DNA from: a virus
Lineage: Duplodnaviria > Caudoviricetes
IMG/VR virus record: IMGVR_UViG_3300048577_000141
Location: 1 to 45,192 of that record
DNA length: 45,192 nt
Strand: one strand, 5' to 3'
The notes under the pieces are model-generated. The model made no database searches and was not told the DNA's origin. It saw only the letters and a list, made by a program, of their open reading frames with translations. The position numbers and the translations under genes are program-made. Of this stretch, positions 2,552-44,688 are shown in pieces (the first letter of the stretch is position 1; every line of letters starts with the position of its first letter).

Positions 2552-3217
2552 TCAGGCCGGCGCGATGCCGATCGTCATGCGACCCTGCGTGCTGGCAGAG
2601 GCAAGGGTTGCCGTGGTCGCTCCGGTCGCGCCCGCCGTGACTTTGTAGCCGGCCGCGATGGCGAAGCCGCCGTCGTCATCGTCCGTCGTGTTGTCGTCGA
2701 GGATTTCGGCGAAGTCGGCCAGATTGGCGTTGGCCCACGAACCGACCGTCGTCGCGTTCGAGAACGCCACTATGGCGAGCACGAGGCAACCGTCCACCGT
2801 CGTCGTAGCGGTCGGGCAGGAGACGGAGGTGGAAGAGCCGGAATTGCTGCCGGTGTTGACGTTGATCGTGGTGTTGGCGTTCCGGATCGCGATGATGACC
2901 GCGATGGTGTGCGAGCCGAACAGGCCGACCGTGACCGCGCTTTCGGACCCGGAATGCACCTTCGAAAACACGCCAAGCCGGGTCGAGGTCGCGAACGTGC
3001 CGTTGCCCTGCGGACTGTTCGACAGCTCGGAATATCCGGACGGCGCGGTCTGGCCGCCGTTTTCCGTGCCGACGATGCAGAGCAGCAGATCGCCGGCCTG
3101 CGCGCCTGCCGGCGGGCTGACGCTGACCGCGTTCCCGCTCCCCTTGGCGACGGTGCCGATGGCGGCAATGAAGGGGCCGGATTTCGGCTTCCAGAACGGC
3201 AGGGCCGTGAGCAGCAT
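2552..3217 (-). CDS. Ser/Thr-rich beta-sandwich virion-associated protein (tail accessory)
   Basis: AGGAGG RBS; start overlaps the glycosyltransferase stop; PPAGAQAGDLLL motif common in phage tail accessory proteins. Confidence 0.55.
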   Translation of the reverse strand: MLLTALPFWKPKSGPFIAAIGTVAKGSGNAVSVSPPAGAQAGDLLLCIVGTENGGQTAPSGYSELSNSPQGNGTFATSTRLGVFSKVHSGSESAVTVGLFGSHTIAVIIAIRNANTTINVNTGSNSGSSTSVSCPTATTTVDGCLVLAIVAFSNATTVGSWANANLADFAEILDDNTTDDDDGGFAIAAGYKVTAGATGATTATLASASTQGRMTIGIAPA

Positions 3218-4284
3218 CACGCTGCCTCCTGATACCAGCCCTTGCCGAACAGCGTGGCGAGGCGGTTGAAATAGCGCTCGTACTGCTCGCCGACCGTCGC
3301 CATGGAAAAGCGGCGGTGCGCGTCGTCGCGGATGCGCTCGTGGTTGAGCGCCGGAGCGCAGTCGAGAGCACTGCAGAACTCTGCGAAGGACCGGCAGCGG
3401 AAGCCGTGGACGCCATGCTCCACCGTCTCGGTGAAGGCGCCCCAGTCCGTGCAGATGACCGGCGTGCCGCAGGCCATGGCCTCGATCGTCACCGTACCGA
3501 ACGGCTCGACATAGATCGTCGGGGCGAACAGGCATCGCGCGCCGGCCATCAGCGTCGCGCGCGTCGCCGCGTCGACCTCGCCGACGAAGCGGCCATAGCC
3601 CTTGCCGCTCCTGCCGCCCGGCCCGGCGAGGATCAGGTCGAGGCCCTTTGCCTGGCACACCTCCTGCGCGATCCGGTATCCCTTGCGATCCGTGATCCGG
3701 CCGACATAGAGGGCATAGTCGCCCCGCTCGCGCGGCAGATCGTAGAGCCCGTCCTCGATCTGGTTCGGAATGACGGCGTCGAACCACTGGCCGTCGGCCG
3801 CGCCGGGATTACCGGCCTGCGCACCGTAGACCATGTGCATCCACGCATAGCTCTCGAAGACGCGATGCTTGGCGAAGGTGCCGGCATAGCCGATGCCGAA
3901 CTCGACGGAGACATGGTTCGGGAAGGCGTCCGCGATCGGCTTGTGCGACCAGCCGCCGATCAGGCAGATGAAGTCGCGAAAGCCGAGCCGTTCCTCCATC
4001 GCGTCGATCACGCGGGCATTGAAGCCGTTCCAGTAGGGATGCGACCAGTCGGCCTCGGTGTAGTGCCTGCCGCCGACCATCTTGCGGCGCTTGTTCTCGG
4101 AAATGCAGGGGATCAGCTCGACGCAGGGCGCGTCTGTCCTTTCGCCGGCATAGAGCAACACCTCGTGGCCACGGTCGGACATCATCCGGCAGAAGCGCCT
4201 GACCTTCTGCGTGAACGCGCAGGAAGGAAAGTCGGCCGTCGCTTGCGTGTGCGGCAGCGATACGACGTGGAGACGCATGATCAC
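3217..4284 (-). CDS. GT-B (GT4-like) glycosyltransferase
   Basis: [10 protein letters not shown] and [18 protein letters not shown] motifs. Confidence 0.9.
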
Positions 4285-5468
4285 CCCATTTTCTTGATGA
4301 TTAGCATTGTGCCGTTCGGCCCGACGGAAGCGTGACAGCGGAACTTGTCACCATTGGTCGTGGTGAATGGGTCGCCGTCCGTCTCGGTCCAGTTCGAGAT
4401 GGTAATCGCACCGGCCGAAGCGCCATTTTCTATGTCAAGGATGATCGCCCCAACGACGGCACCAGGATTGAGCGTATGCGCGCCATTATTGACGTAGTGC
4501 TGGATCGGGCGGTCGGCCATGTCAAGCGTCACCGTCCCGGTCGTGATCGTGCCGAGCGACTTCGACGTGACGCTCGCACCGCCCGTAATCGGCCCCTGAT
4601 TTTCGACATTGTCGCGCAACAGGTTCGGACCTGTCGGCCCTGTTGGTCCCGTCGCACCGGCAGGTCCTGTCGGCCCCGTGGGGCCGGTAGCGCCGACCGC
4701 TCCGCCGGATCCCGATGGTCCCGTCGCACCCGCAGGGCCGATGTCGCCCTGCGGGCCGGTCGGACCAGTCGGACCTGTCGGTCCTACCGGGCCGGTTGCG
4801 CCAATTGCACCAACGTCGCCTTCTGGACCCGTTGGGCCGGTAGGTCCAGTCGCGCCAGCGGGACCCGTGCCGCCCGTAGGTCCGGTCGGCCCCGTGGGGC
4901 CGGCAACGCCTGCGATACCACCGGCATCCGTCCATGACGAACCGTTCCACACATAGAGATGGTCGTCGGCCTCGACGAGATAGGTTGCGCCGACCCCCTC
5001 GCCCGGAGGCGAAGGCAGCGCGCCCGTGGTAGCAACGACGGCGTCGATCTGGAGGCCTTCCCCCTGTGGACCCGTGGGGCCGGTAGGGCCGGTCGGACCT
5101 GCGGGACCCGTGACGCCGGTAGCGCCGGGAGCGCCTGTGCCGCCGGTCGGCCCTGTTGGCCCCGTCGGCCCCGTCGGCCCTTCTGGTCCAGTCGCACCGG
5201 CAGGACCTGTCGCTCCCGTCGGCCCTGCCGGCCCCGTCGGCCCTTCCGGTCCAGTCGATCCGGTCGGTCCCGTCGGTCCCGTCGGACCCGGCAAGCCGCC
5301 CGTCTGGCCGAACCAACTCGCCACCGTTACCCAGTCCTCGTTCATCAACGGCACGTTGACGAGGTTGCCGTAATTGGCGAGGCCGTACGGATTGCCGCCG
5401 GAAACCGGGTTCGAATTGTAGAGTAGCAGGCGGTCGAGCGCTTCCTGGACTTCGGCGGGGATCGACAT
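4281..5468 (-). CDS. Collagen-like fibre protein with two GXT-rich blocks
   Basis: Long Gly-X-Y runs dominated by GPT/GAT, interrupted by a [13 protein letters not shown] linker. Confidence 0.85.
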
Positions 5469-35763: not shown

Positions 35764-35839
35764 TTCGTACAATACGTACGACGTCGGGTCAAGCCAACAT
35801 CGTACACCTTGGACGATGGAAATCGGCCAAAATGTACGA
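35764..35839. promoter_or_regulatory. OR-like region: three 17-bp operators (TCGTAC-N5-GTACGA consensus) and cro promoter TTGACC-17-TACGAA on the minus strand
   Basis: Operators at 35765-35781 (perfect), 35800-35816 and 35823-35839. Confidence 0.85.
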
Positions 35840-36454
35840 ATGAGACAGCAACCGAGAGAGCGGCTTCAATTAGCAAGAGCCAAGGCCGGCTTCAAGAATC
35901 CGGCTGATGCGTCGCGCGCCTTCCGCGACATCAATCAAAACACGCTGACGAGCCATGAAAATGGCAATCGGACCATATCTCGCAAGGCTGCCGAAAAATA
36001 CGCTCGGCATTTCGGCGTCGAAGCCGGTTGGATTCTCTACGGCGACAGGAGCGATTTGGAATTTCCTGGCCTCTATCGTATCCCGGTGCTTTCATGGGTC
36101 AGCGCAAGCAATCTTCGGGAGCAGCCAGGCGTCACAGCCGCCGACATTGAGCGATGGGTGCAGGTGGCCGACCTGCCGGCGGGAGACTGGATAGCGCTTG
36201 GTGTGGACGGCGATTCGATGAATCGGGTCGCTCCGGACGGATCGACCATTATAGTCAATCGCGCAGATGATAGACTATTGGACGGCAGATACTATGTGTT
36301 CCAACAGGGCGGCGGTGCAGCGACTTTCAAGCGCTACAAGCGCAATCCCGAGATGATGCAACCCTTCTCCACAAACCCAGACCACATGTCGATTGCAATT
36401 GCAGATGACCTGTACGTCTTCGGTCGTGTTCGCAGAGTTATCACCGACCTCTAG
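35840..36454 (+). CDS. cI: CI-like repressor (XRE HTH plus S24 autoprotease)
   Basis: HTH NQNTLTSHENGNR; IPVLSWVSA, VDGDSM (Ser) and ATFKRY (Lys); start could alternatively be 35816. Confidence 0.92.
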   Translation: MRQQPRERLQLARAKAGFKNPADASRAFRDINQNTLTSHENGNRTISRKAAEKYARHFGVEAGWILYGDRSDLEFPGLYRIPVLSWVSASNLREQPGVTAADIERWVQVADLPAGDWIALGVDGDSMNRVAPDGSTIIVNRADDRLLDGRYYVFQQGGGAATFKRYKRNPEMMQPFSTNPDHMSIAIADDLYVFGRVRRVITDL

Positions 36455-36514: not shown

Positions 36515-36904
36515 ATGGATTATCTCGATCTCGATCTATTAATCGAAGACACGCTTGTCGTGGGCGTACAGCACCACATTGAGAATTGTCGTGACTTCTA
36601 CGAGGCAGCGATGGAGGCGGCCTCGTTTGATCTGCTTGAAGAGCACATCGGCATCCGGCTTCAGCGTGATCCGGGCAACGCCTTCGACAGCTACGCCATC
36701 AAGGTGCTTGGCAAGTGGATTCAGCCAGACGGGCGCAAGAAGTCCGCCTTGCTGGGCTATCTCTCAAAGGGCATGGCGTGGAAAGTTGGTCAGGAGACAG
36801 ATGAGGAAGATCGGCTGTATGGCGAATTCTGCTCGATCGAACCACACCCCGACTATGGGTACGACCTTCGGATTAACGTTTATGTAAAGTACGACTTTCA
36901 ATAG
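36515..36904 (+). CDS. HIRAN-domain protein
   Basis: VVGVQHH...LQRDPGNAFDSYAIKV...LLGYLSK HIRAN pattern; GGGAGG RBS. Confidence 0.75.
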   Translation: MDYLDLDLLIEDTLVVGVQHHIENCRDFYEAAMEAASFDLLEEHIGIRLQRDPGNAFDSYAIKVLGKWIQPDGRKKSALLGYLSKGMAWKVGQETDEEDRLYGEFCSIEPHPDYGYDLRINVYVKYDFQ

Positions 36905-36907
36905 CAA

Positions 36908-36951
36908 TCGTACAAAACGTACTTGACCTGAAATCGTACATCTTGTACGAA
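36908..36951 (+). promoter_or_regulatory. OL/PL-like region: two operators and promoter TTGACC-17-TACGAA
   Basis: Operators 36908-36924 and 36934-36950 (perfect palindrome); -35 and -10 identical to the cro promoter. Confidence 0.85.
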
Positions 36952-36985: not shown

Positions 36986-37177
36986 ATGTCACATCCTTTC
37001 CGGAAGCCGGCCACCGTCGAGCGGATGGCCGCCGTCATGCTCGACATCCGCGCCACGGGCCGGGTCGTCGACGAGGATGCCCTCGCCAATGAGGGTTTTA
37101 CCGGGGCCGAGATCGCAGCCTTCGCCCGCCGCGCCCGCGACATCGCCAATGCGCGCGCCGTCCGTCAGGTCGCGTGA
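36986..37177 (+). CDS. Small hypothetical protein, first gene of the PL-like operon
   Basis: GGAG RBS downstream of the promoter. Confidence 0.65.
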   Translation: MSHPFRKPATVERMAAVMLDIRATGRVVDEDALANEGFTGAEIAAFARRARDIANARAVRQVA

Positions 37178-37189
37178 GGCTCGCCGGCG

Positions 37190-37282
37190 ATGCGCGACCT
37201 TATCCACGACACCGCGGCGTTCATCTCCCTGATGGTCTGCCTCGCCGGCAGCGCCCTCCTGCTGATGGCGCTGGCGACATGA
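37190..37282 (+). CDS. 30-aa hydrophobic peptide (MRDLIHDTAAFISLMVCLAGSALLLMALAT)
   Basis: Fills the gap; its stop overlaps the next ATG (ATGA); not in the ORF track. Confidence 0.45.
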   Translation: MRDLIHDTAAFISLMVCLAGSALLLMALAT

Positions 37283-37500
37283 CCAACGACAACCGCCGCC
37301 CCGAAACTCTCGATCCCCGCGAGGCGATCCACGCAAAGCCATGGCCGGATGGATCGAACGCCTTCGACGACGAGCCGGAGCTTCTGCCGCTTGCCGCCCG
37401 GCCGATGTTCAGCCTGATCGAACTCGTGCTGCTCAGCTGCATGGTCGGCATCCTGCTCGTCACGCTCTACATTGGCCTCGTCTGGGCGGTGCGCCCATGA
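37279..37500 (+). CDS. Small single-TM protein
   Basis: MTNDNRR start, C-terminal TM helix, ATGA coupling on both sides. Confidence 0.55.
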   Translation: MTNDNRRPETLDPREAIHAKPWPDGSNAFDDEPELLPLAARPMFSLIELVLLSCMVGILLVTLYIGLVWAVRP

Positions 37501-37724
37501 CCCCCGCCGAAAAGCACAACGAGCTTGCGCACGACTTCGTCATGAAAGTCGTGCGCGAGACGAAGAGCCATTCCGAGCTGATGGTCGTCGTCGAGAGCGC
37601 CGTCCTGTCCGCGATGCTCGTCTCGCGCAGGGTCTACAGCCTTCCTCCGGCCGGCTGCGTCGAGATGATCGAGATGGCCATCCAGCAGGCGACGGCCCGG
37701 TTCTCCGCAATGGAGGCACGGTGA
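37497..37724 (+). CDS. Hypothetical protein
   Basis: MTPAEKHNELAH start, coupled. Confidence 0.6.
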   Translation: MTPAEKHNELAHDFVMKVVRETKSHSELMVVVESAVLSAMLVSRRVYSLPPAGCVEMIEMAIQQATARFSAMEAR

Positions 37725-38533
37725 TGACGGACATCGCGAAAGACAAAAGGCTGGAAGTGGGCCTTGCCTGGGTCGATCCGGGTATCATTTGGGCGATGGA
37801 GCCCTTCGTGGACTACGCGCGCCGCACTTCTCCGCTGCAATTCCTCGACGGAAGCATTTTCATCGAGCCCTGCGCCATGGGCGGAGCCATGATCGCGGCG
37901 ATATCCGGCCATGCAATGGCTGTCGTCCGCGATCCCGAAGGCCAATGCAGCAGGCCGATGGCCGTCGATCTGCCGACCGTGCTGTTCGAAGCATGCGCTC
38001 CGCGTGAGCCGATCCGCATGAGCTATTGCGGCGAAGGCTACGAATGCCCCTTGCCGCCATGGGCGCAGCCCGGCGCGCTCTGGCTCACCAATGCCGGAAG
38101 CTTTCTGTTGCCGAAAATGCGCCATCCCGATTGGGCCGAAGAGAACAACGAGTTCCATCCCGTCCTTTTTGATGCCGCTGCCAGCACCACACATCATCAC
38201 GTCGGACGCGACTACCGCTGCACAATCGACAAGACGTTTCCATGGCGAAGGCCGCTCGCGATAGCGCGCGGTAGTGAGGCACAGGAAGCGGCCTTCGCCA
38301 CTGCGGCGCCCGAACTCATCGGCCTGTTCGCGCGCTTCCATGAACTCTTTCGACGCCGCCTTGAAGACAATCCCCGCGTCTGGATGAGGTTCGCTGCCGG
38401 AGGGCAGATGGTCGTCACATTCGAGCGCCAGCCAGATTTCGTCGGCACGCTCATGCAGATGACACCCGGCGAGCCGGAGCCCATGCCGGCCTGGTTCGAA
38501 ACCTACGACGCCGAAACGACAGGGAGCGCCTGA
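37724..38533 (+). CDS. Hypothetical protein, possibly with a beta-clamp-like segment
   Basis: GGAGG RBS; IFIEP..GGAMIAAISGHAMAV resembles the ATDGH motif region. Confidence 0.55.
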   Translation: MTDIAKDKRLEVGLAWVDPGIIWAMEPFVDYARRTSPLQFLDGSIFIEPCAMGGAMIAAISGHAMAVVRDPEGQCSRPMAVDLPTVLFEACAPREPIRMSYCGEGYECPLPPWAQPGALWLTNAGSFLLPKMRHPDWAEENNEFHPVLFDAAASTTHHHVGRDYRCTIDKTFPWRRPLAIARGSEAQEAAFATAAPELIGLFARFHELFRRRLEDNPRVWMRFAAGGQMVVTFERQPDFVGTLMQMTPGEPEPMPAWFETYDAETTGSA

Positions 38534-38709
38534 TGCTTCCCTACCCCTACGTCTACCGCTGGGACCGGCAGGGCCGTAAAGGCCAGCTCTGCCGCGTCAC
38601 GGCGCGCGGCTCGATGAACTCGATCTGCGTCGAGTTCATCGACGGATATCGCATGATCACCAGCGGCAACGCCATTCGCAAGACGAAGGCGGACACCCAA
38701 CCATCCTGA
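38533..38709 (+). CDS. 58-aa hypothetical protein (MLPYPYVYRWDRQGRKGQLCRVTARGSMNSICVEF...)
   Basis: TGATG coupling; fills the gap before DGR target 1; not in the ORF track. Confidence 0.6.
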   Translation: MLPYPYVYRWDRQGRKGQLCRVTARGSMNSICVEFIDGYRMITSGNAIRKTKADTQPS

Positions 38710-38732: not shown

Positions 38733-39668
38733 ATGCTCACCGCAGCAGCCAGACCCGATTCCGCTCCCGTTCTCACAAAAACGAGCCTCGATGCGGCCGC
38801 CTTCACCGTCACCGGTCGATCGTCGCTCGCCTTGCAGGACGATATCACCATTGCCGGCACGCTCTTCGCGGGCGGCACCGTCGTCACCATGCCCGCCGCA
38901 GAGCACAAGCCCGGCTCCGACTTCGGTATCTTCGTCGACGGCAATGCTTTGATCGCCATGCCGGACACGCGCGATACGAACGCAGTTGTTCCCGGCCCGC
39001 TGGAAAGCGGCCTCGTCCAGATCGGCGGCTTCCACTTCGCGCCGGGCGGAAATGCAGCCGCGCGGGCCGGCGGAGACGATGTCCCGGCCATCAACCCGTT
39101 CTCCATCTGGGACCTGTCGTTCCGTCCAGCCTGTCCGGACCCGCGCGGCATGTTCACGATCGTCCTGCCGGACGGCAGCCGCTCGTGGATCGACATCTAC
39201 AAGCTCGGCGTCGACCATCTGAAGGACGGCACCAGCCGCTGCAGCGTCACCATCGCCGACGGCGAGAGCCTGCCCGTCCGCATCGGCGGCAACGGCAAGG
39301 TCGCGCGTCTGGATTTTCCGACGGCGCAGGAGATCCTTGGCCATCACGGCAAGCAGCTGCTCACTTATGACGAGTTCCGCGTCGCGGCCTTCGGCGTGAC
39401 CGAAAAGACCGCGGCCGGGAAAGACCCGAAAGTCACAGGCCTCGACGCGCCGCGCACCAGCCGTTTCGGCATGATGCAGGCGACGGGCAACCTCTGGGAC
39501 TGGGGAACGGACGGCGATCCCGACAACCCACGCGCGTCGATCTTCGGCGGCTACTGGTGGCGCGGCGGCGACGCCGGCTCCCGCTACGCGAACCTCGGCG
39601 ACTGGCCGGGCCACTCGGGCAGGGACATTTCCGCGCGCGGCCGCTGCGATCACCTGCCGCCTGCCTGA
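38733..39668 (+). CDS. DGR target 1: Mtd-like C-type-lectin-fold protein
   Basis: GGFHFAPG, SIWDLSFRPACPDPRGM, WIDIY..GV.H..DGTS and ARGRCDHL match recalled BPP-1 Mtd motifs; C-terminal VR. Confidence 0.92.
   Translation: MLTAAARPDSAPVLTKTSLDAAAFTVTGRSSLALQDDITIAGTLFAGGTVVTMPAAEHKPGSDFGIFVDGNALIAMPDTRDTNAVVPGPLESGLVQIGGFHFAPGGNAAARAGGDDVPAINPFSIWDLSFRPACPDPRGMFTIVLPDGSRSWIDIYKLGVDHLKDGTSRCSVTIADGESLPVRIGGNGKVARLDFPTAQEILGHHGKQLLTYDEFRVAAFGVTEKTAAGKDPKVTGLDAPRTSRFGMMQATGNLWDWGTDGDPDNPRASIFGGYWWRGGDAGSRYANLGDWPGHSGRDISARGRCDHLPPA
39528..39647 (+). repeat. DGR variable region VR1
   Basis: 120-bp copy of TR with 11 mismatches, all at TR adenines. Confidence 0.97.
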
Positions 39669-39669
39669 C

Positions 39670-39687
39670 CCCGCGCGAAAGCGCGGG
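39670..39687 (+). promoter_or_regulatory. DGR target-recognition hairpin 1 (CCCGCGC-GAAA-GCGCGGG)
   Basis: GC stem with GAAA loop immediately after the target 1 stop. Confidence 0.85.
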
Positions 39688-39722
39688 TGCGCCTCCCCTC
39701 AAATCAACCGGAGCACACTCCC

Positions 39723-40622
39723 ATGAACATCGCAGTCAATTCACCGGTCGCCATCGACCGCGCCGATACCACGCTTCCGATCCTCGCCTGCACAGGGCCG
39801 CTTGCGATCGCGATCCGGGCCGGCACCATCGTCACCGCTGCCGATCGCCGCGCCGTCTTCGAGACGGACACGCCGATCGACCTCGACAAGCCGGGCATCG
39901 GCCAGGACTACGGCATTCGTCTCGCCGACAACGGCAGCGTCGAGGCCGTGCCGATCAGCGCCGGTTTCGACCGCGACCAGATCTTCGCCGGCTTCCATAT
40001 CGCGTCATTCGCAAACGCCACCGCGCGCGGAGGCGGGACGCTCGGCAGGACCATCAACCCATATTCCTGCTGGGACATCGGCTTTCGCCCGGCCTGTCCC
40101 GATCCGCGCGGCATGACGCTTGTCGACGGCCGCTTCTGGGCAGATATCTATCTGCTCGGCGTTGACCATGATCGGGACGGCACCAGCCTCTATGCCGCAA
40201 CGATCGCCGACGGCGCGAAGCTTCCTAACCTGCCGGCCGGCGGCAAGGCCAAGAAGCTTGACTATGCCACAGCACAGGCGATCTACGCGCATCACGGCAA
40301 GCATCTGCTCGGCGCGGAAGAGTTCTTTGCCGCCGCATATGGCGTCGAGGAGCGCTGTTCGCGGGACGAGGAGCCGGACGTCACCGGCGAGGCGGCCGGT
40401 GCGCGTTTCGTCAGCAAATGGGGCCTGATCGACGCCACAGGCACCATGTGGCAGTGGGGAACGGACGGCGATCCGGACAATCCGCGCGCGTCGTTCTTCG
40501 GCGGCACCTGGTGGGACGGCGGCAGCGCCGGCTCCCGCTGCGCGGACCTCGGCGGCTGGCCGGTCTACTCGGTCAGGAGCATTTCCGCGCGCGGCCGCTG
40601 CGGCCACATGCGGCCTGAATAG
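39723..40622 (+). CDS. DGR target 2: Mtd-like C-type-lectin-fold protein
   Basis: IRAGTIV, DPRGMTLVDGRFWADIYLLGV and SKWGLIDATGTMWQWG Mtd-like motifs; GGAG RBS before MNIAVN. Confidence 0.92.
   Translation: MNIAVNSPVAIDRADTTLPILACTGPLAIAIRAGTIVTAADRRAVFETDTPIDLDKPGIGQDYGIRLADNGSVEAVPISAGFDRDQIFAGFHIASFANATARGGGTLGRTINPYSCWDIGFRPACPDPRGMTLVDGRFWADIYLLGVDHDRDGTSLYAATIADGAKLPNLPAGGKAKKLDYATAQAIYAHHGKHLLGAEEFFAAAYGVEERCSRDEEPDVTGEAAGARFVSKWGLIDATGTMWQWGTDGDPDNPRASFFGGTWWDGGSAGSRCADLGGWPVYSVRSISARGRCGHMRPE
40482..40601 (+). repeat. DGR variable region VR2
   Basis: 120-bp copy of TR with 15 mismatches, all at TR adenines. Confidence 0.97.
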
Positions 40623-40623
40623 G

Positions 40624-40639
40624 CCGCGCGGAAGCGCGG
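40624..40639 (+). promoter_or_regulatory. DGR target-recognition hairpin 2 (CCGCGC-GGAA-GCGCGG)
   Basis: Same stem sequence and position as hairpin 1. Confidence 0.85.
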
Positions 40640-40650
40640 GCTGACCCGAC

Positions 40651-41016
40651 ATGATCAGGGACGCTCACATGCACGCGCCGGGACTGGCGATCGTTGAGAA
40701 GCACGAGCAGACGATCGCCTATCTCTATCCGGTCATCCAGCGCTTTCCGCGCCGGCACGGCGTGGCGCGCGACGCGTTCCTGAATGTCCTGTTCGATCAG
40801 GTCACCCTGCTCCATCAGGCGGCCAAGTCGGGCCAGCCCTCGAAACTCTATGCGGCGGACGCGAACCTCGCGACGCTGCGCTTCTGGTTGCGCTTCACGG
40901 CGGGTCCAGCCGTCCGGGCCATCACGCCGCGCCAGCACAGGGCCGCGCAGGCCCTTGTGGCCGAAACCGGCGCCATGCTCGGCCAGTGGATCAAGACCGC
41001 GAAGGGCAAGGGATGA
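40651..41016 (+). CDS. avd: DGR accessory variability determinant
   Basis: 121-aa basic helical protein between target and TR; YLYPVIQRFPRRHG...LYAADANLATLRFWLRF...ETGAMLGQWI. Confidence 0.92.
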   Translation: MIRDAHMHAPGLAIVEKHEQTIAYLYPVIQRFPRRHGVARDAFLNVLFDQVTLLHQAAKSGQPSKLYAADANLATLRFWLRFTAGPAVRAITPRQHRAAQALVAETGAMLGQWIKTAKGKG

Positions 41017-41030
41017 ACGGGGTAGAGATG

Positions 41031-41150
41031 CCACGCGCGTCGATCTTCGGCGGCAACTGGTGGAACGGCGACAACGCCGGCTCCCGCTACGCGAACCTCG
41101 ACAACTGGCCGGACAACTCGGACAGGAACATTTCCGCGCGCGGCCGCTGC
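41031..41150 (+). repeat. DGR template repeat TR
   Basis: 23 adenines, seven AAC codons; matches both VRs at every non-A position; ends in the 14-bp GC run CCGCGCGCGGCCGC. Confidence 0.97.
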
Positions 41151-41327
41151 GACGATCCTTTTCCGGCGCGGCCGAGGTCACGGCCCGGCCGGCCCTTCAC
41201 CATGCGGGCAGTCCCGCAGGGGTGGTCGGTCCGTTCATCCCGCTTCGGCGAACACACTTCTGGGTCCGGCAGAGCGGGGAGTAGCGCCGTCAAGCGTCGA
41301 AACCCGCGGCCGGCACGCGAGGCCGCC

Positions 41328-42311
41328 ATGGGCAAGAAACGCCGCAATCTCATCGACAGGATCACCGCCGACGCCAACATGATGGAGGCATGGCGCCTCA
41401 CCCGGCGCGGCCGCCGCCTTTCCGCCTCCGGGCTGGAGTTCAAGGAATACGCCGTCCTCAACCTGCATCGCCTCGCGGCCGCGATGCGCGATGGGAGCTA
41501 TCGCGAGGGTGAGCCGACGCGGTTCCTGATCTGGGACCCGAAGCGCCGCGAGATCGCAGCGCTCCCGTTCCGCGACCGTATCGCACAGCACGCGCTCTGC
41601 GCCGTCATCGGCCCGATCTTCGACGCGACACTGCTGCCCAACACCTTCGCCTGTCGCGCCGGCAAGGGGACGCATGCCGGCGTGAAAGCGGTCCAGTCGG
41701 AGCTGCGCCGCCGGCAGCGGGCGGGAGGCGCAACCTGGGTGCTCAAGACGGACTTCTCGCGCTACTTCGCATCGATCGACCGGGCCGTGCTCTGGCGCAT
41801 GATCGAGGCCAAGATCAGCTGTGCCGCCACGCTTCGCCTGATCGAGGCGATGATCCCGCGATCCGGCATCGGCCTGCCGATCGGCAGTCTCGTGTCGCAG
41901 ATCTTCGCCAACGTCTATGGCGGCATCGTCGACCGTCATCTTCAGCAGGACCTCGGCGAGCGCTTCTGGTATCGCTACATGGACGATCTCGTCGTGCTCG
42001 GCGATTGCCCCGACCATCTGCGACGGGTGAAGGCCTCGATCGAGGATCTGTCGCGGCAGCAACTCGGCCTGCGCTTCTCCAAATGGTCGATCCAGCCGGC
42101 ATCGCGCGGCGTCAACTTCCTCGGCTATCGCATCTGGGCCAGCCACAAGCTGCTGCGCCGCGATTCCGTCAAGCGCGCCCGCCGCAAGATCGCCGCCATG
42201 CGCGCGGCCGGCGACGGCGAACGGCTCGCCCGCTTCCTCGCCGCATGGACCGGTCATGCCAGTTGGGCCGACAGCCATAATCTGCTCAAATCGCTCGGGG
42301 TGGCAGAATGA
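41328..42311 (+). CDS. DGR reverse transcriptase (327 aa)
   Basis: FRDRIAQHA, KTDFSRYFASID, GLPIGSLVSQIFAN, RYMDD and NFLGY motifs; MGKKRRNLID start resembles BPP-1 bRT. Confidence 0.97.
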   Translation: MGKKRRNLIDRITADANMMEAWRLTRRGRRLSASGLEFKEYAVLNLHRLAAAMRDGSYREGEPTRFLIWDPKRREIAALPFRDRIAQHALCAVIGPIFDATLLPNTFACRAGKGTHAGVKAVQSELRRRQRAGGATWVLKTDFSRYFASIDRAVLWRMIEAKISCAATLRLIEAMIPRSGIGLPIGSLVSQIFANVYGGIVDRHLQQDLGERFWYRYMDDLVVLGDCPDHLRRVKASIEDLSRQQLGLRFSKWSIQPASRGVNFLGYRIWASHKLLRRDSVKRARRKIAAMRAAGDGERLARFLAAWTGHASWADSHNLLKSLGVAE

Positions 42312-42616
42312 GCGCCCGGCCGAAACGTGACGACCTCGCCCCGACACTTGATGAACTGCCGATGTTTGCAACGGATCGACAGATCGCCGAAGCCATAGTC
42401 GGCAAGGACGCCGCCGAAAAATGGATGCGGGAGCGGTTGCCGACACTTGCCAGCAAGCCGGGTTTCCCCAAAATAGATGAGTTTCATGGCGGGCGCCCCG
42501 TCAAACTCATCGCCAAGTTCTATGACGATTATCTCGGAACCGCGATCAGGGCGCCATCAGTGGCTCGCGGCGTGGAGGACGTCAGCGCATGGAAACCGTC
42601 AAAGCGCCGGGCCTGA
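42308..42616 (+). CDS. Putative excisionase / recombination directionality factor
   Basis: Small wHTH-like protein overlapping the integrase start. Confidence 0.55.
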   Translation: MSARPKRDDLAPTLDELPMFATDRQIAEAIVGKDAAEKWMRERLPTLASKPGFPKIDEFHGGRPVKLIAKFYDDYLGTAIRAPSVARGVEDVSAWKPSKRRA

Positions 42617-43815
42617 AGTGGCGCAAGCTCGCCAGCGGTCTTTCGCCTGTTTGGGTTGCCGACGAGTCTGCGGTCGCCGCTGGCTACCAGCCAAAAACCA
42701 TGAACCTGAAGCATCTGGCCGGCGATCCCGAGATGCTTGTCGCGCAGTGCAATGCACTCCAGGCCGACATGATTCTCTGGCGGACAGGCTACCGCCGAGA
42801 TCCTCTGAAGTTCGATGGCACCATCCGATCGCTGCTGGACATCTACGAAACCCATGAGCGCAGCCCGTACCGGTCGCTGAAGCCCGGTTCACGAAAGCCC
42901 TACAACCATTACCTTCGCCGGATGCGAGGCCATATAGGCGCGCGGCACATCGACGACGTGACCGGCGTCGACATTCTCAACTGGCACGTCATCTGGTCCG
43001 AGAATGGAAAGCATCTTGCCGCCGCCGCGATGGCGCGCGCGGTTCTCGAAGCCGCCATCAGTTTCGGCGTGATGCTGAGAAAGCAGGGATGCGCGGAGCT
43101 TGCTGTCATTTTCCGCGAAACGCGCAGGAAGCTGCCGGCGCCAAGATCCCGCAAGGCCGTGCTGACGGCTGAACAGGTCATCGCGGCGCGCGCGGCCGCG
43201 CATGCGGACGGTCGCCCTTCTTGTGCTCTCGCCTATGCCCTCGCCTTCGAAACCACGTTACGGCTATGGGACGTGATCGGACAGTGGTATCCGATGGACT
43301 GGCGCGAGGTGTCCGACATCATCAGCGCCGAGCGCAAGCAGAAGTGGCTCGGTGTTCGGTGGGAGGACATCGACGAGAAGATGCGCATCACTTACACGCC
43401 GTCGAAGACCGCTACCCGCACTGGAGCGACGATCTCTTACCCGCTATCGCAGGCGCCGATGGTGATCGAGGAGCTGAAGCACTGGCCTGCCGAGAAGCGA
43501 TCAGGCCCGATAGTCGTTTCAGAGAAGACTGGAAAGCCCTACCGGGAATTGCCATTCCAGAAACGGTGGCAGAAGGATCGAAAGGCGGCCGGCATTCCAG
43601 CGGCCGTATGGGCTCGCGATCTTCGCGCCTCCGGCATCACGGAAGCCCGCGCTTCGGACGTGTCGACCGACGATGCGGCGAAGGTCGCCGGTCACAGTTC
43701 CACCCGCACGACCGGCGATTATGATAGGGCCGTGATCGAGGCCACGAACAGGTTCGCAGCGGCTCGCCTGCGCGAACGTGAACGTAGCGGTAACGGGAGC
43801 GGTAACGGGCGGTAA
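42589..43815 (+). CDS. int: Tyrosine integrase
   Basis: TTLR, RDLRASGITE, GH and Y catalytic residues. Confidence 0.9.
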   Translation: METVKAPGLKWRKLASGLSPVWVADESAVAAGYQPKTMNLKHLAGDPEMLVAQCNALQADMILWRTGYRRDPLKFDGTIRSLLDIYETHERSPYRSLKPGSRKPYNHYLRRMRGHIGARHIDDVTGVDILNWHVIWSENGKHLAAAAMARAVLEAAISFGVMLRKQGCAELAVIFRETRRKLPAPRSRKAVLTAEQVIAARAAAHADGRPSCALAYALAFETTLRLWDVIGQWYPMDWREVSDIISAERKQKWLGVRWEDIDEKMRITYTPSKTATRTGATISYPLSQAPMVIEELKHWPAEKRSGPIVVSEKTGKPYRELPFQKRWQKDRKAAGIPAAVWARDLRASGITEARASDVSTDDAAKVAGHSSTRTTGDYDRAVIEATNRFAAARLRERERSGNGSGNGR

Positions 43816-43915: not shown

Positions 43916-44097
43916 TCTCGGACGCTGACACCCGTCCGTCAGAGCGCTCGCTGACCATCCGGATTTGCGCCGCCTGCGCTCGTCCGGAGCCGGCCGGGGC
44001 AAATCCGCCCGTTGGGGAGTCAGCAATGGACATTCATGAAATCTGGATTCGGCTCCTGACCGCTGGCCTCCGGGAGCTGACGGAAGGAGATTCCGAA

Positions 44098-44688
44098 ATG
44101 GCATATAAGGCCAGCAAGTACATTCCCTATGGCGGCGACGGCGGCCACGGCATGCAGATGTTCGAGGCCAGGAACGCCCTCGACTACATGGCCGGCAAGG
44201 GCAAGCTGATCGACTCGGTCATGCTCTACGCGCACACCAACGTCGAGACGCTGGCGACGCCGCTGCCGGGCTTCCTGAGCGGCTACCAGTATCAGTTCGA
44301 CATCGGCATCGACCTTGATCGGGACGAATCACCCGACTGGTTTATCGACATCCGGATTTTCGACAACGATGGCAGCCTCAAGGGCGCGAAGATGGAGATC
44401 GACAGCAATCCGGGCAGCGGCTACGTCAGACAGTGGCTGACCTTCAACAACAACACGAGCGCGTTCGAGGGCAAGGTCAACGGCCGCTTCGTGTCGGTCG
44501 AGGTCGAAAAAACCGGCGTCAACGAATGGTCGGCCCATATCGATCAGGAAGTCATGCACGACGTCGTCGGCGCTGGCTGGAACGGCGAGGGCAAGTTCGG
44601 CTTCGAGGTCTACAATGACGGGATTTCGAGCTACAATGAGTTCACGCTGATCGACACGCCGAACGACCCGATCGGGCTGGTGGCGTAG
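44098..44688 (+). CDS. Acidic beta-rich hypothetical cargo protein
   Basis: AAGGAG RBS before MAYKASK; standalone gene beyond attP. Confidence 0.7.
   Translation: MAYKASKYIPYGGDGGHGMQMFEARNALDYMAGKGKLIDSVMLYAHTNVETLATPLPGFLSGYQYQFDIGIDLDRDESPDWFIDIRIFDNDGSLKGAKMEIDSNPGSGYVRQWLTFNNNTSAFEGKVNGRFVSVEVEKTGVNEWSAHIDQEVMHDVVGAGWNGEGKFGFEVYNDGISSYNEFTLIDTPNDPIGLVA

Follow-up and report, generated by a model that had tools for sequence, protein, structure and literature searches.

In the diversity-generating retroelement (DGR) of phage BPP-1, the diversified protein is the adhesin Mtd, whose gene lies in the late module after the tail-fibre gene and has bbp4 downstream of it; the protein has an N-terminal domain and a 31-residue loop ahead of its variable repeat (VR). 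Mtd is presumed to attach to the fibre through its N-terminal prism (PMC10743442), and its beta2-beta3 loop places Tyr322 and Tyr333 in the site of the adjacent protomer, bracing that site in the trimer (PMC2408619). Related elements have been read in the same sense: viral DGR targets are described as mostly tail structural (Roux et al. 2021), Mtd-like targets as tail fibres (Benler et al. 2018), and category 'a' of Wu et al. 2018 (Mtd homologs, CLec1; 11 in Table S1) as diversifiers of tail proteins. Here we analyse a DGR with two Mtd-like targets in IMG/VR record IMGVR_UViG_3300048577_000141, a stretch of 45,192 bp (the window) that is a whole circular temperate-phage record with a 127-bp terminal repeat. 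The targets lie in a putative early operon and belong to a clade with a shortened loop before the VR. We tentatively propose, at a little less than an even chance, that in a widespread group of alphaproteobacterial temperate phages the Mtd tail adhesin has been turned into a DGR-diversified, antibody-like intracellular library for counter-defence in the first minutes of infection, and that one contig (L118/L126) preserves the transition.

The cassette consists of the following features:

38733..39668, +: target 1 (T1), 311 aa, short-loop Mtd-like protein, beta-sandwich plus C-type lectin fold
39530..39649, +: VR1, 11/11 mismatches to the template repeat (TR) at adenines
39670..39687, +: target-recognition hairpin behind VR1, GC stem and GAAA loop (z -3.0)
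39723..40622, +: target 2 (T2), 299 aa from ATG, short-loop Mtd-like protein
40484..40603, +: VR2, 16/16 TR mismatches at adenines
40624..40639, +: hairpin behind VR2, GC stem and GGAA loop (z -3.6)
40651..41016, +: accessory gene avd (bAvd in Pfam; above cut-off for NCBIfam NF033474)
41033..41152, +: TR, 120 nt with 24 adenines and 16 variable codons, between avd and the reverse transcriptase
41328..42311, +: DGR reverse transcriptase, RT (phrog_1423, E 1e-108; Pfam RVT_1)

This is a clear member of the BPP-1 type of DGR, with RT, TR, adenine-only VRs, avd and hairpins all present; the GRNA-loop form of the hairpin has been described for phage DGRs (PMC3240598). None of the non-adenine TR positions is changed in VR1 or VR2 (0/96), and the number of VR peptides possible from the TR is about 10^13.5. 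Five relatives (L001-L005, of which L001-L003 are near-copies of one another) have a TR 100% identical to that of the window; their VRs differ from those of the window at TR adenines only, at 10/10, 13/13 and 9/9 positions for T1 and 18/18 and 15/15 for T2. These adenine-only differences beside an identical TR demonstrate, as a record left in the DNA, that the DGR has been mutagenically active in the past. Outside the VR, the ratio of nonsynonymous to synonymous change (dN/dS) is 0.07-0.14 for T1 and 0.26-0.32 for T2. Across the clade defined below, 103 of 116 short targets with a nearby RT match a TR, with 1199 mismatches at adenines vs 28 elsewhere; the other 13 were unmatched at first pass, and two of these matched in a wider window. 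L005 has one target only before avd.

Both targets are Mtd-like. They share 146 identities over 329 columns, carry the Pfam domain mtd_2nd without Mtd_N, and their alignments to the Mtd crystal structures start at residue 57 (T1) and 56 (T2; phmmer, E 4e-53 and 8e-49). A first-pass annotation, made from the sequence alone, had stated that they lack the N-terminal domain of Mtd and have a shorter loop before the VR, and both statements hold: the hidden Markov model of Mtd_N (PF18454) matched nothing in the six frames of the window or in two short-clade records while finding its domain in 2/2 long-form controls, and the loop measures 13 aligned residues vs 31 in BPP-1. A split N-terminal domain or a Bbp4-like adaptor elsewhere in the genome was searched for and not found. 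The AlphaFold model of T1 has a predicted template modelling score of 0.82, and its only Foldseek matches at E<=0.001 are 1yu0-1yu4 (E 5e-22, TM 0.73). A homotrimer prediction (T1 residues 10-311, 3 copies) scored 0.08, which gives no verdict and is used neither way.

Loop length separates these proteins into two groups: by alignment count, 129 targets have 12-14 residues and 66 have 28-52; none falls between, and 2 are unscored. A protein search returned 1008 matches including long forms, and the 120 listed, of 262-367 aa (median 302), are all short-loop, 111 by pattern and 9 by eye. In a quick IQ-TREE analysis of a subsample of 86 rows (48 short and 38 long; loop and VR excluded, midpoint root), the short and long groups are split by one branch with an approximate likelihood-ratio support (SH-aLRT) of 96. 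As far as the sequences tell, the early clade is marked by the loop deletion and not by the N-terminus. The target search found no match among plasmids, and the 14 records found in the isolated-phage collection are all long or engineered forms, with no short-clade isolate.

The two groups occupy different genomic contexts. Short-loop loci were drawn with a short-clade profile from the best 80 of 395 viral stretches plus 64 genome stretches, and long-loop loci with a long-form query from the best 80 of 165; genes were called by script, neighbours were labelled with PHROG, and merging at 85% target identity gave 154 loci. With context labels built from the neighbours of these same loci, some pairs sharing a contig and the sets picked by similarity with different queries, the nearest labelled upstream gene at short-loop loci (n=86) was early in 65, virion in 0 and unlabelled in 21, whereas at long-loop loci (n=66) it was virion in 40, early in 0 and unlabelled in 26. 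Downstream, short-loop loci had early genes in 59, terminase or portal in 3 and no label in 24 (n=86), and long-loop loci had virion genes in 22 and early genes in 4 (n=66). The idea that relatives keep the DGR beside int did not generalise: by approximate counts, 31 short loci are oriented to the int side (leftward), 30 to the replication side (rightward) and 25 are unclear.

Further features point away from the virion. A Bbp4-like gene of ~82 aa is present in 46/66 long loci, with or without a DGR, vs 0/86 short loci; a six-frame search gave 55 long vs 0 short, and whole records gave 0/39 short carriers vs 9/10 controls (five of those controls in the profile). Examples downstream of long Mtds are L017:10641-10889 (BPP-1 bbp4) and L016:9101-9352, and the protein may help to assemble Mtd onto the virion or serve as its adaptor there; the one member scanned against Pfam and NCBIfam has no family in either, nor in PHROG. 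Among the 120 proteins of >577 aa listed for the short-clade profile, 119 have the long loop, several of them together with fibre, collagen or collar domains, and one has the short loop; the latter, an apparent ParB fusion (L040/P0121), was rejected as a frameshift read-through. Where in-frame N-terminal extensions of short forms match anything, they match neighbouring early genes. At equal GC content (64%), the cores of short forms contain 21.0% D/E/K/R and 13.8% S/T/N, vs 13.6% and 23.1% in long forms, the reference values being 25.7% and 12.6% for early proteins and 17.0% and 20.0% for virion proteins; by column, 34 positions gain charge and 10 lose it. The carrier phages include contractile baseplates (10/39), lambda-type (gpA) terminases (15/39) and HK97-type siphoviruses like the window phage.

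Some individual fusions deserve mention in their own right. At L032:9680-10888, L062:9572-10840 and L085:10001-12118, short targets are joined in frame to upstream early genes, one partner being presumably MazG-like and another a 130-aa domain of unknown kind, and in one case to the RT, without avd. At L048:4015-5190 (-), the VR end of a short-clade protein is replaced by an XRE helix-turn-helix; recurrence of this fusion was considered and rejected, as it is a singleton in the database.

Seven short targets lie in early operons away from their cassette: L007 and L108 in the opposite early operon, L100 on the opposite strand at 10 kb, L090, L031 and L077 at 5-7 kb, and L118. Their VR/TR mismatches (adenine/non-adenine) are 15/0 in L007, 5/0 in L108, 13/0 in L100, 13/0 in L090, 12/0 in L031, 12/0 in L077 and 13/0 in L118. 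Because these adenine-matched targets sit in early operons at a distance, early position is a property of the target gene and not just of the cassette. The L048 reverse-strand target and the L053 upstream target fail the TR test.

Two phages, L118/L126 and L069/L180, combine a tail Mtd with early short forms; an extra long form is present in 1/38 carrier records. L118/L126 is one myovirus-type contig, in which the late module (L126:9485-12726) holds baseplate, long Mtd (484 aa), avd, TR, RT and sheath, while a 317-aa short form (L118:10001-10954) has cII/methyltransferases on one side and the replication initiator on the other, at a distance of about 25 kb from the L126 cassette. Both VRs fit one TR (11/1 and 13/0, adenine/non-adenine), and L118 is the first branch in the short clade (support 93), with intermediate composition. 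Between the L069 TR and the tail Mtd of L171, a related record, there are 54 non-adenine mismatches and hence no match, so that one TR serving tail and early targets is seen once only, in L118/L126.

In the window, the virion, packaging and lysis genes found by Pfam and PHROG (1867-25297) are all on the minus strand, together with the replication/cII arm; they include the collagen fibre, tape measure, tube, HK97-type capsid, portal and terminase. The plus strand carries, in order, cI, a HIRAN gene, the putative leftward operator and promoter (OL/PL), small open reading frames (ORFs), T1, T2, avd, TR, RT, a xis-like ORF and int. The features outside the cassette are:

4281..5468, -: collagen-type tail fibre of the phage itself, without VR (Pfam/PHROG and TR-like scan)
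35765..35839: OR-like region, three palindromic sites (0, 1 and 2 mismatches, inverted repeat) between the cro-like gene and cI, putative operators
35819..36454, +: CI-like repressor, helix-turn-helix plus S24 peptidase (Pfam/PHROG)
36908..36951, +: OL/PL-like region, two operator-like sites (2 and 0 mismatches) around a TTGACC -35-like hexamer, putative promoter
36986..38709, +: small early-type ORFs leading into the DGR, mostly with 1-4 nt overlaps (gene calls and gaps)
42308..42616, +: small ORF preceding the integrase, excisionase-like by position only
42589..43815, +: tyrosine integrase (Pfam/PHROG)

T1 (311 aa) and T2 (299 aa) do lie on the strand opposite the virion genes and upstream of xis-int, as the first-pass annotation had it, xis being assigned by position only (the ORF at 42308..42616 matched no Pfam or PHROG family). 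Its statement that the fibre genes have no VR also stands, since a scan of the whole window on both strands found no further TR-like stretch, the next best having 18/46 non-adenine mismatches over half the TR. Gaps along the left operon are 101, -4, -1, -1, 23, 54, 28, 311 (TR), -4 and -28 nt. The small ORFs at 36986..38709 match no family above cut-off in Pfam, PHROG or PADLOC; for the one at 37724-38533 (269 aa), features point weakly to clusters of the sliding clamp (DNA pol III beta; 17% of members), and a clamp gene lies upstream of the targets in many relatives. The palindrome TCGTAC-N5-GTACGA occurs with 0-2 mismatches at 35765, 35800, 35823, 36908 and 36934, sites that flank cI; the CI-controlled PL-like promoter that had been suggested is putative.

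We propose the following mechanism. RT, Avd, TR and two VRs with their hairpins are in place, variation among relatives is confined to adenines, and the scaffold is under purifying selection. The repressor-controlled left operon would be transcribed upon infection or induction, and RT, Avd, TR RNA and both targets would be made before DNA replication, such that progeny inherit new VRs. The targets, as a clade of Mtd that has shed its Bbp4-like partner and the beta2-beta3 loop that braces the trimer, and has added surface charge, would be cytoplasmic. More speculatively, VRs able to bind a variable host factor would be selected in the next host, the likeliest such factor being a defence or exclusion protein, and the cassette would be a library of counter-defence binders. 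That the targets are non-virion overall seems to us probable from their sequences and surroundings; that they are early intracellular binders of host proteins, likely for counter-defence, we regard as an even proposition.

Several considerations weigh against this proposal. The context counts (65/65 and 40/40) may be inflated, because the labels come from the same neighbourhoods and the sets were picked by different queries; moreover, context, composition, loop and partner loss share one clade origin and are correlated, not fully independent. The absence of the N-terminal domain, which the first-pass annotation had used as an argument, was discarded as a diagnostic trait, for 12/66 long-loop Mtds have N-termini nearly as short as those of the short clade (84-110 residues before the GFH motif, vs mostly 76-102 in the short clade and 141 in BPP-1), and for nine of the 12 the neighbouring genes are virion genes (portal, neck, tail fibre and others); the prism is apparently dispensable for an Mtd in a virion module. 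The VR of the T1 model (273-311) has a per-residue confidence (pLDDT) <50, and a folded binding site there is assumed from homology. Mtd binding is micromolar and virion avidity brings it to picomolar (PMC2408619), a gain that a soluble target would lack. Palindromes with <=3 mismatches total 18, not clearly above the 12.3+-3.2 expected by chance, and the sigma-70 scan called no promoter at the PL-like site. Some expression of the left operon may occur in a lysogen, as no plus-strand terminator was called between cI and the operon. PADLOC recognised none of nine operon proteins (0/9), and recognised genes for defence or anti-defence are absent among the neighbours. Finally, published surveys place such targets among tail proteins. 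As a separate observation, the N-terminally short, long-loop DGR targets of L014, L128, L139 and L140 lie in head/neck regions (portal, terminase, head-tail genes) and are possibly head- or collar-attached adhesins.

Alternative explanations have to be weighed against the same data. The targets could still be virion adhesins, made early and joined to the tail or head via an unrecognised adaptor as a BPP-1-like tropism switch. Their 36-45% identity to Mtd with the same fold, the nine virion-module loci with N-terminally short Mtds, a use of VR residues (S, N, D, Y, G) like that of long forms, and the filing of YR681 as tail-type in Wu et al. 2018 all speak for this; yet a virion gene lies upstream in 0/65 labelled short loci, the window has neither Mtd_N nor a Bbp4-like gene, the short loop occurs in only 1/120 of the long fusions, the carriers have unrelated tail types while the window has fibre genes of its own, and two phages hold a tail Mtd plus early short forms. 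We consider virion adhesins unlikely, and no support was obtained for the variant in which the targets form hetero-oligomeric adhesins. Somewhat less likely again are soluble receptor binders, which on lysis would cover receptors on debris or neighbours, or from within the cell would stop the assembly of receptors or pili and so exclude competing phages. Early phage receptor blockers (T5 Llp) and pilus inhibitors exist, the targets descend from a receptor-binding protein, and one L118/L126 TR feeds both a tail adhesin and a short form. Against such binders, variation in the VRs is not tied to any tail protein, an Mtd-type adhesin is missing from most carriers (extra long form 1/38), and composition is shifted toward cytoplasmic proteins. 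Nor was an export signal found: as the first-pass annotation had noted, there is no obvious signal peptide, a crude check of the 120 closest relatives giving 8 with a hydrophobic window, 1 lipobox-like and 0 Tat.

A role in tuning lysis-lysogeny or induction, by binding a phage or host regulator (a resident-prophage repressor, protease or cell-cycle factor), would fit the neighbouring cII, xis-int, GcrA- and GapR-like genes and the one short form fused to an XRE helix-turn-helix; that singleton, however, has lost its VR match (16 adenine/22 non-adenine), and a self-regulator would presumably gain nothing from 10^13 variants, which leaves this role improbable. We give least credence, and very little, to the cassette being a passenger in an insertion-tolerant region, with targets that have no selected binding function. 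RT is lost in 14/86 and avd in 13/86 short loci (partly through contig ends) and terminal branches are longer in the short clade, as a passenger might have it, but dN/dS outside the VR is 0.07-0.32, the TR stays constant while VRs turn over, two or three diverged targets are kept in 41/86 short loci, and remote targets keep their VR matches. The earlier suggestion of an early, non-tail role is retained on context, partner loss, fusions, composition, remote targets and independence of tail type, and given up as regards the N-terminal argument.

The targets have close relatives in Mesorhizobium, Rhizobium, Shinella, Bradyrhizobium and Nitrobacter, so a Rhizobiales bacterium is the likely host. 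Nearly identical DNA is present in metagenomes from bioreactors, wastewater and activated sludge, where 8 runs contain at least half of the sampled words; RNA runs gave contigs only, and three of the four runs are probably DNA. A contig of run X17 passes from 40231-41095 straight to 44158, and is a relative without RT and integrase. Elsewhere in the window, directly after the collagen fibre on the minus strand, lie a 221-aa S/T/G-rich ORF (2552-3217), a candidate fibre-tip adhesin, and a group-1 glycosyltransferase (3217-4278), a candidate fibre- or surface-modifying enzyme. A HIRAN-like gene behind cI (36515-36904, +) and a 220-aa ORF past int (44026-44688, +) occupy positions typical of lysogen-expressed accessory genes; PADLOC gave no match for them.

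If the proposed intracellular role is true, targeted hypermutation extends to phage-host conflict inside the cell, beyond host-range switching by tail adhesins, and the label 'major tropism determinant' may be mistaken where rhizobial prophages carry it. The arrangement is common to dozens of related phages, the window phage being of soil/wastewater type, and cultured strains with such prophages include Rhizobium sp. BK602, Mesorhizobium sp. SP-1A and Bradyrhizobium sp. YR681.

Compared with described systems, the locus is closest to the BPP-1 DGR (mtd-avd-TR-brt), with which it shares the order target-avd-TR-RT, adenine-specific VR/TR mismatches, a GC-rich VR end, the GRNA-loop hairpin, and a beta-sandwich plus C-type lectin fold with C-terminal VR; unlike BPP-1, it has two targets, an early-operon position and a 13-residue loop, and lacks Mtd_N and a Bbp4-like gene. 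Mtd-like proteins without a DGR (Synechococcus S-CBS3, Marinomonas P12026) have the same domain pair at 32-35% identity, but differ in having a long loop, N-terminal extensions, a place among head/tail genes and no RT. The two-target DGRs of gut phages (tentaclin plus tgt2) likewise use one TR for two C-lectin targets, and tgt2 also lacks the beta-prism; they differ in folds and hosts, tgt2 lacks the beta-sandwich as well, and their authors read them as receptor-binding (PMC10743442). Literature searches, largely outside subscription journals, did not turn up any Mtd clade described as early or non-virion, and the supplements of Roux et al. 2021 and Benler et al. 2018 may list such loci. The earlier claim of an undescribed system can be kept for the interpretation only, since a short-clade member, Bradyrhizobium sp. 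YR681 (= L093/L038), is included in Table S1 of Wu et al. 2018 as a Mtd homolog of architecture B1; it is the only ~300-aa target of the 11 rows, no phage structural homolog is listed for it within 20 kb, and the available discussion of that paper does not mention an early-operon position. What appears to be new, judged from these comparisons, is the early-operon, non-virion interpretation, whereas the DGR type and its YR681 member were already known.

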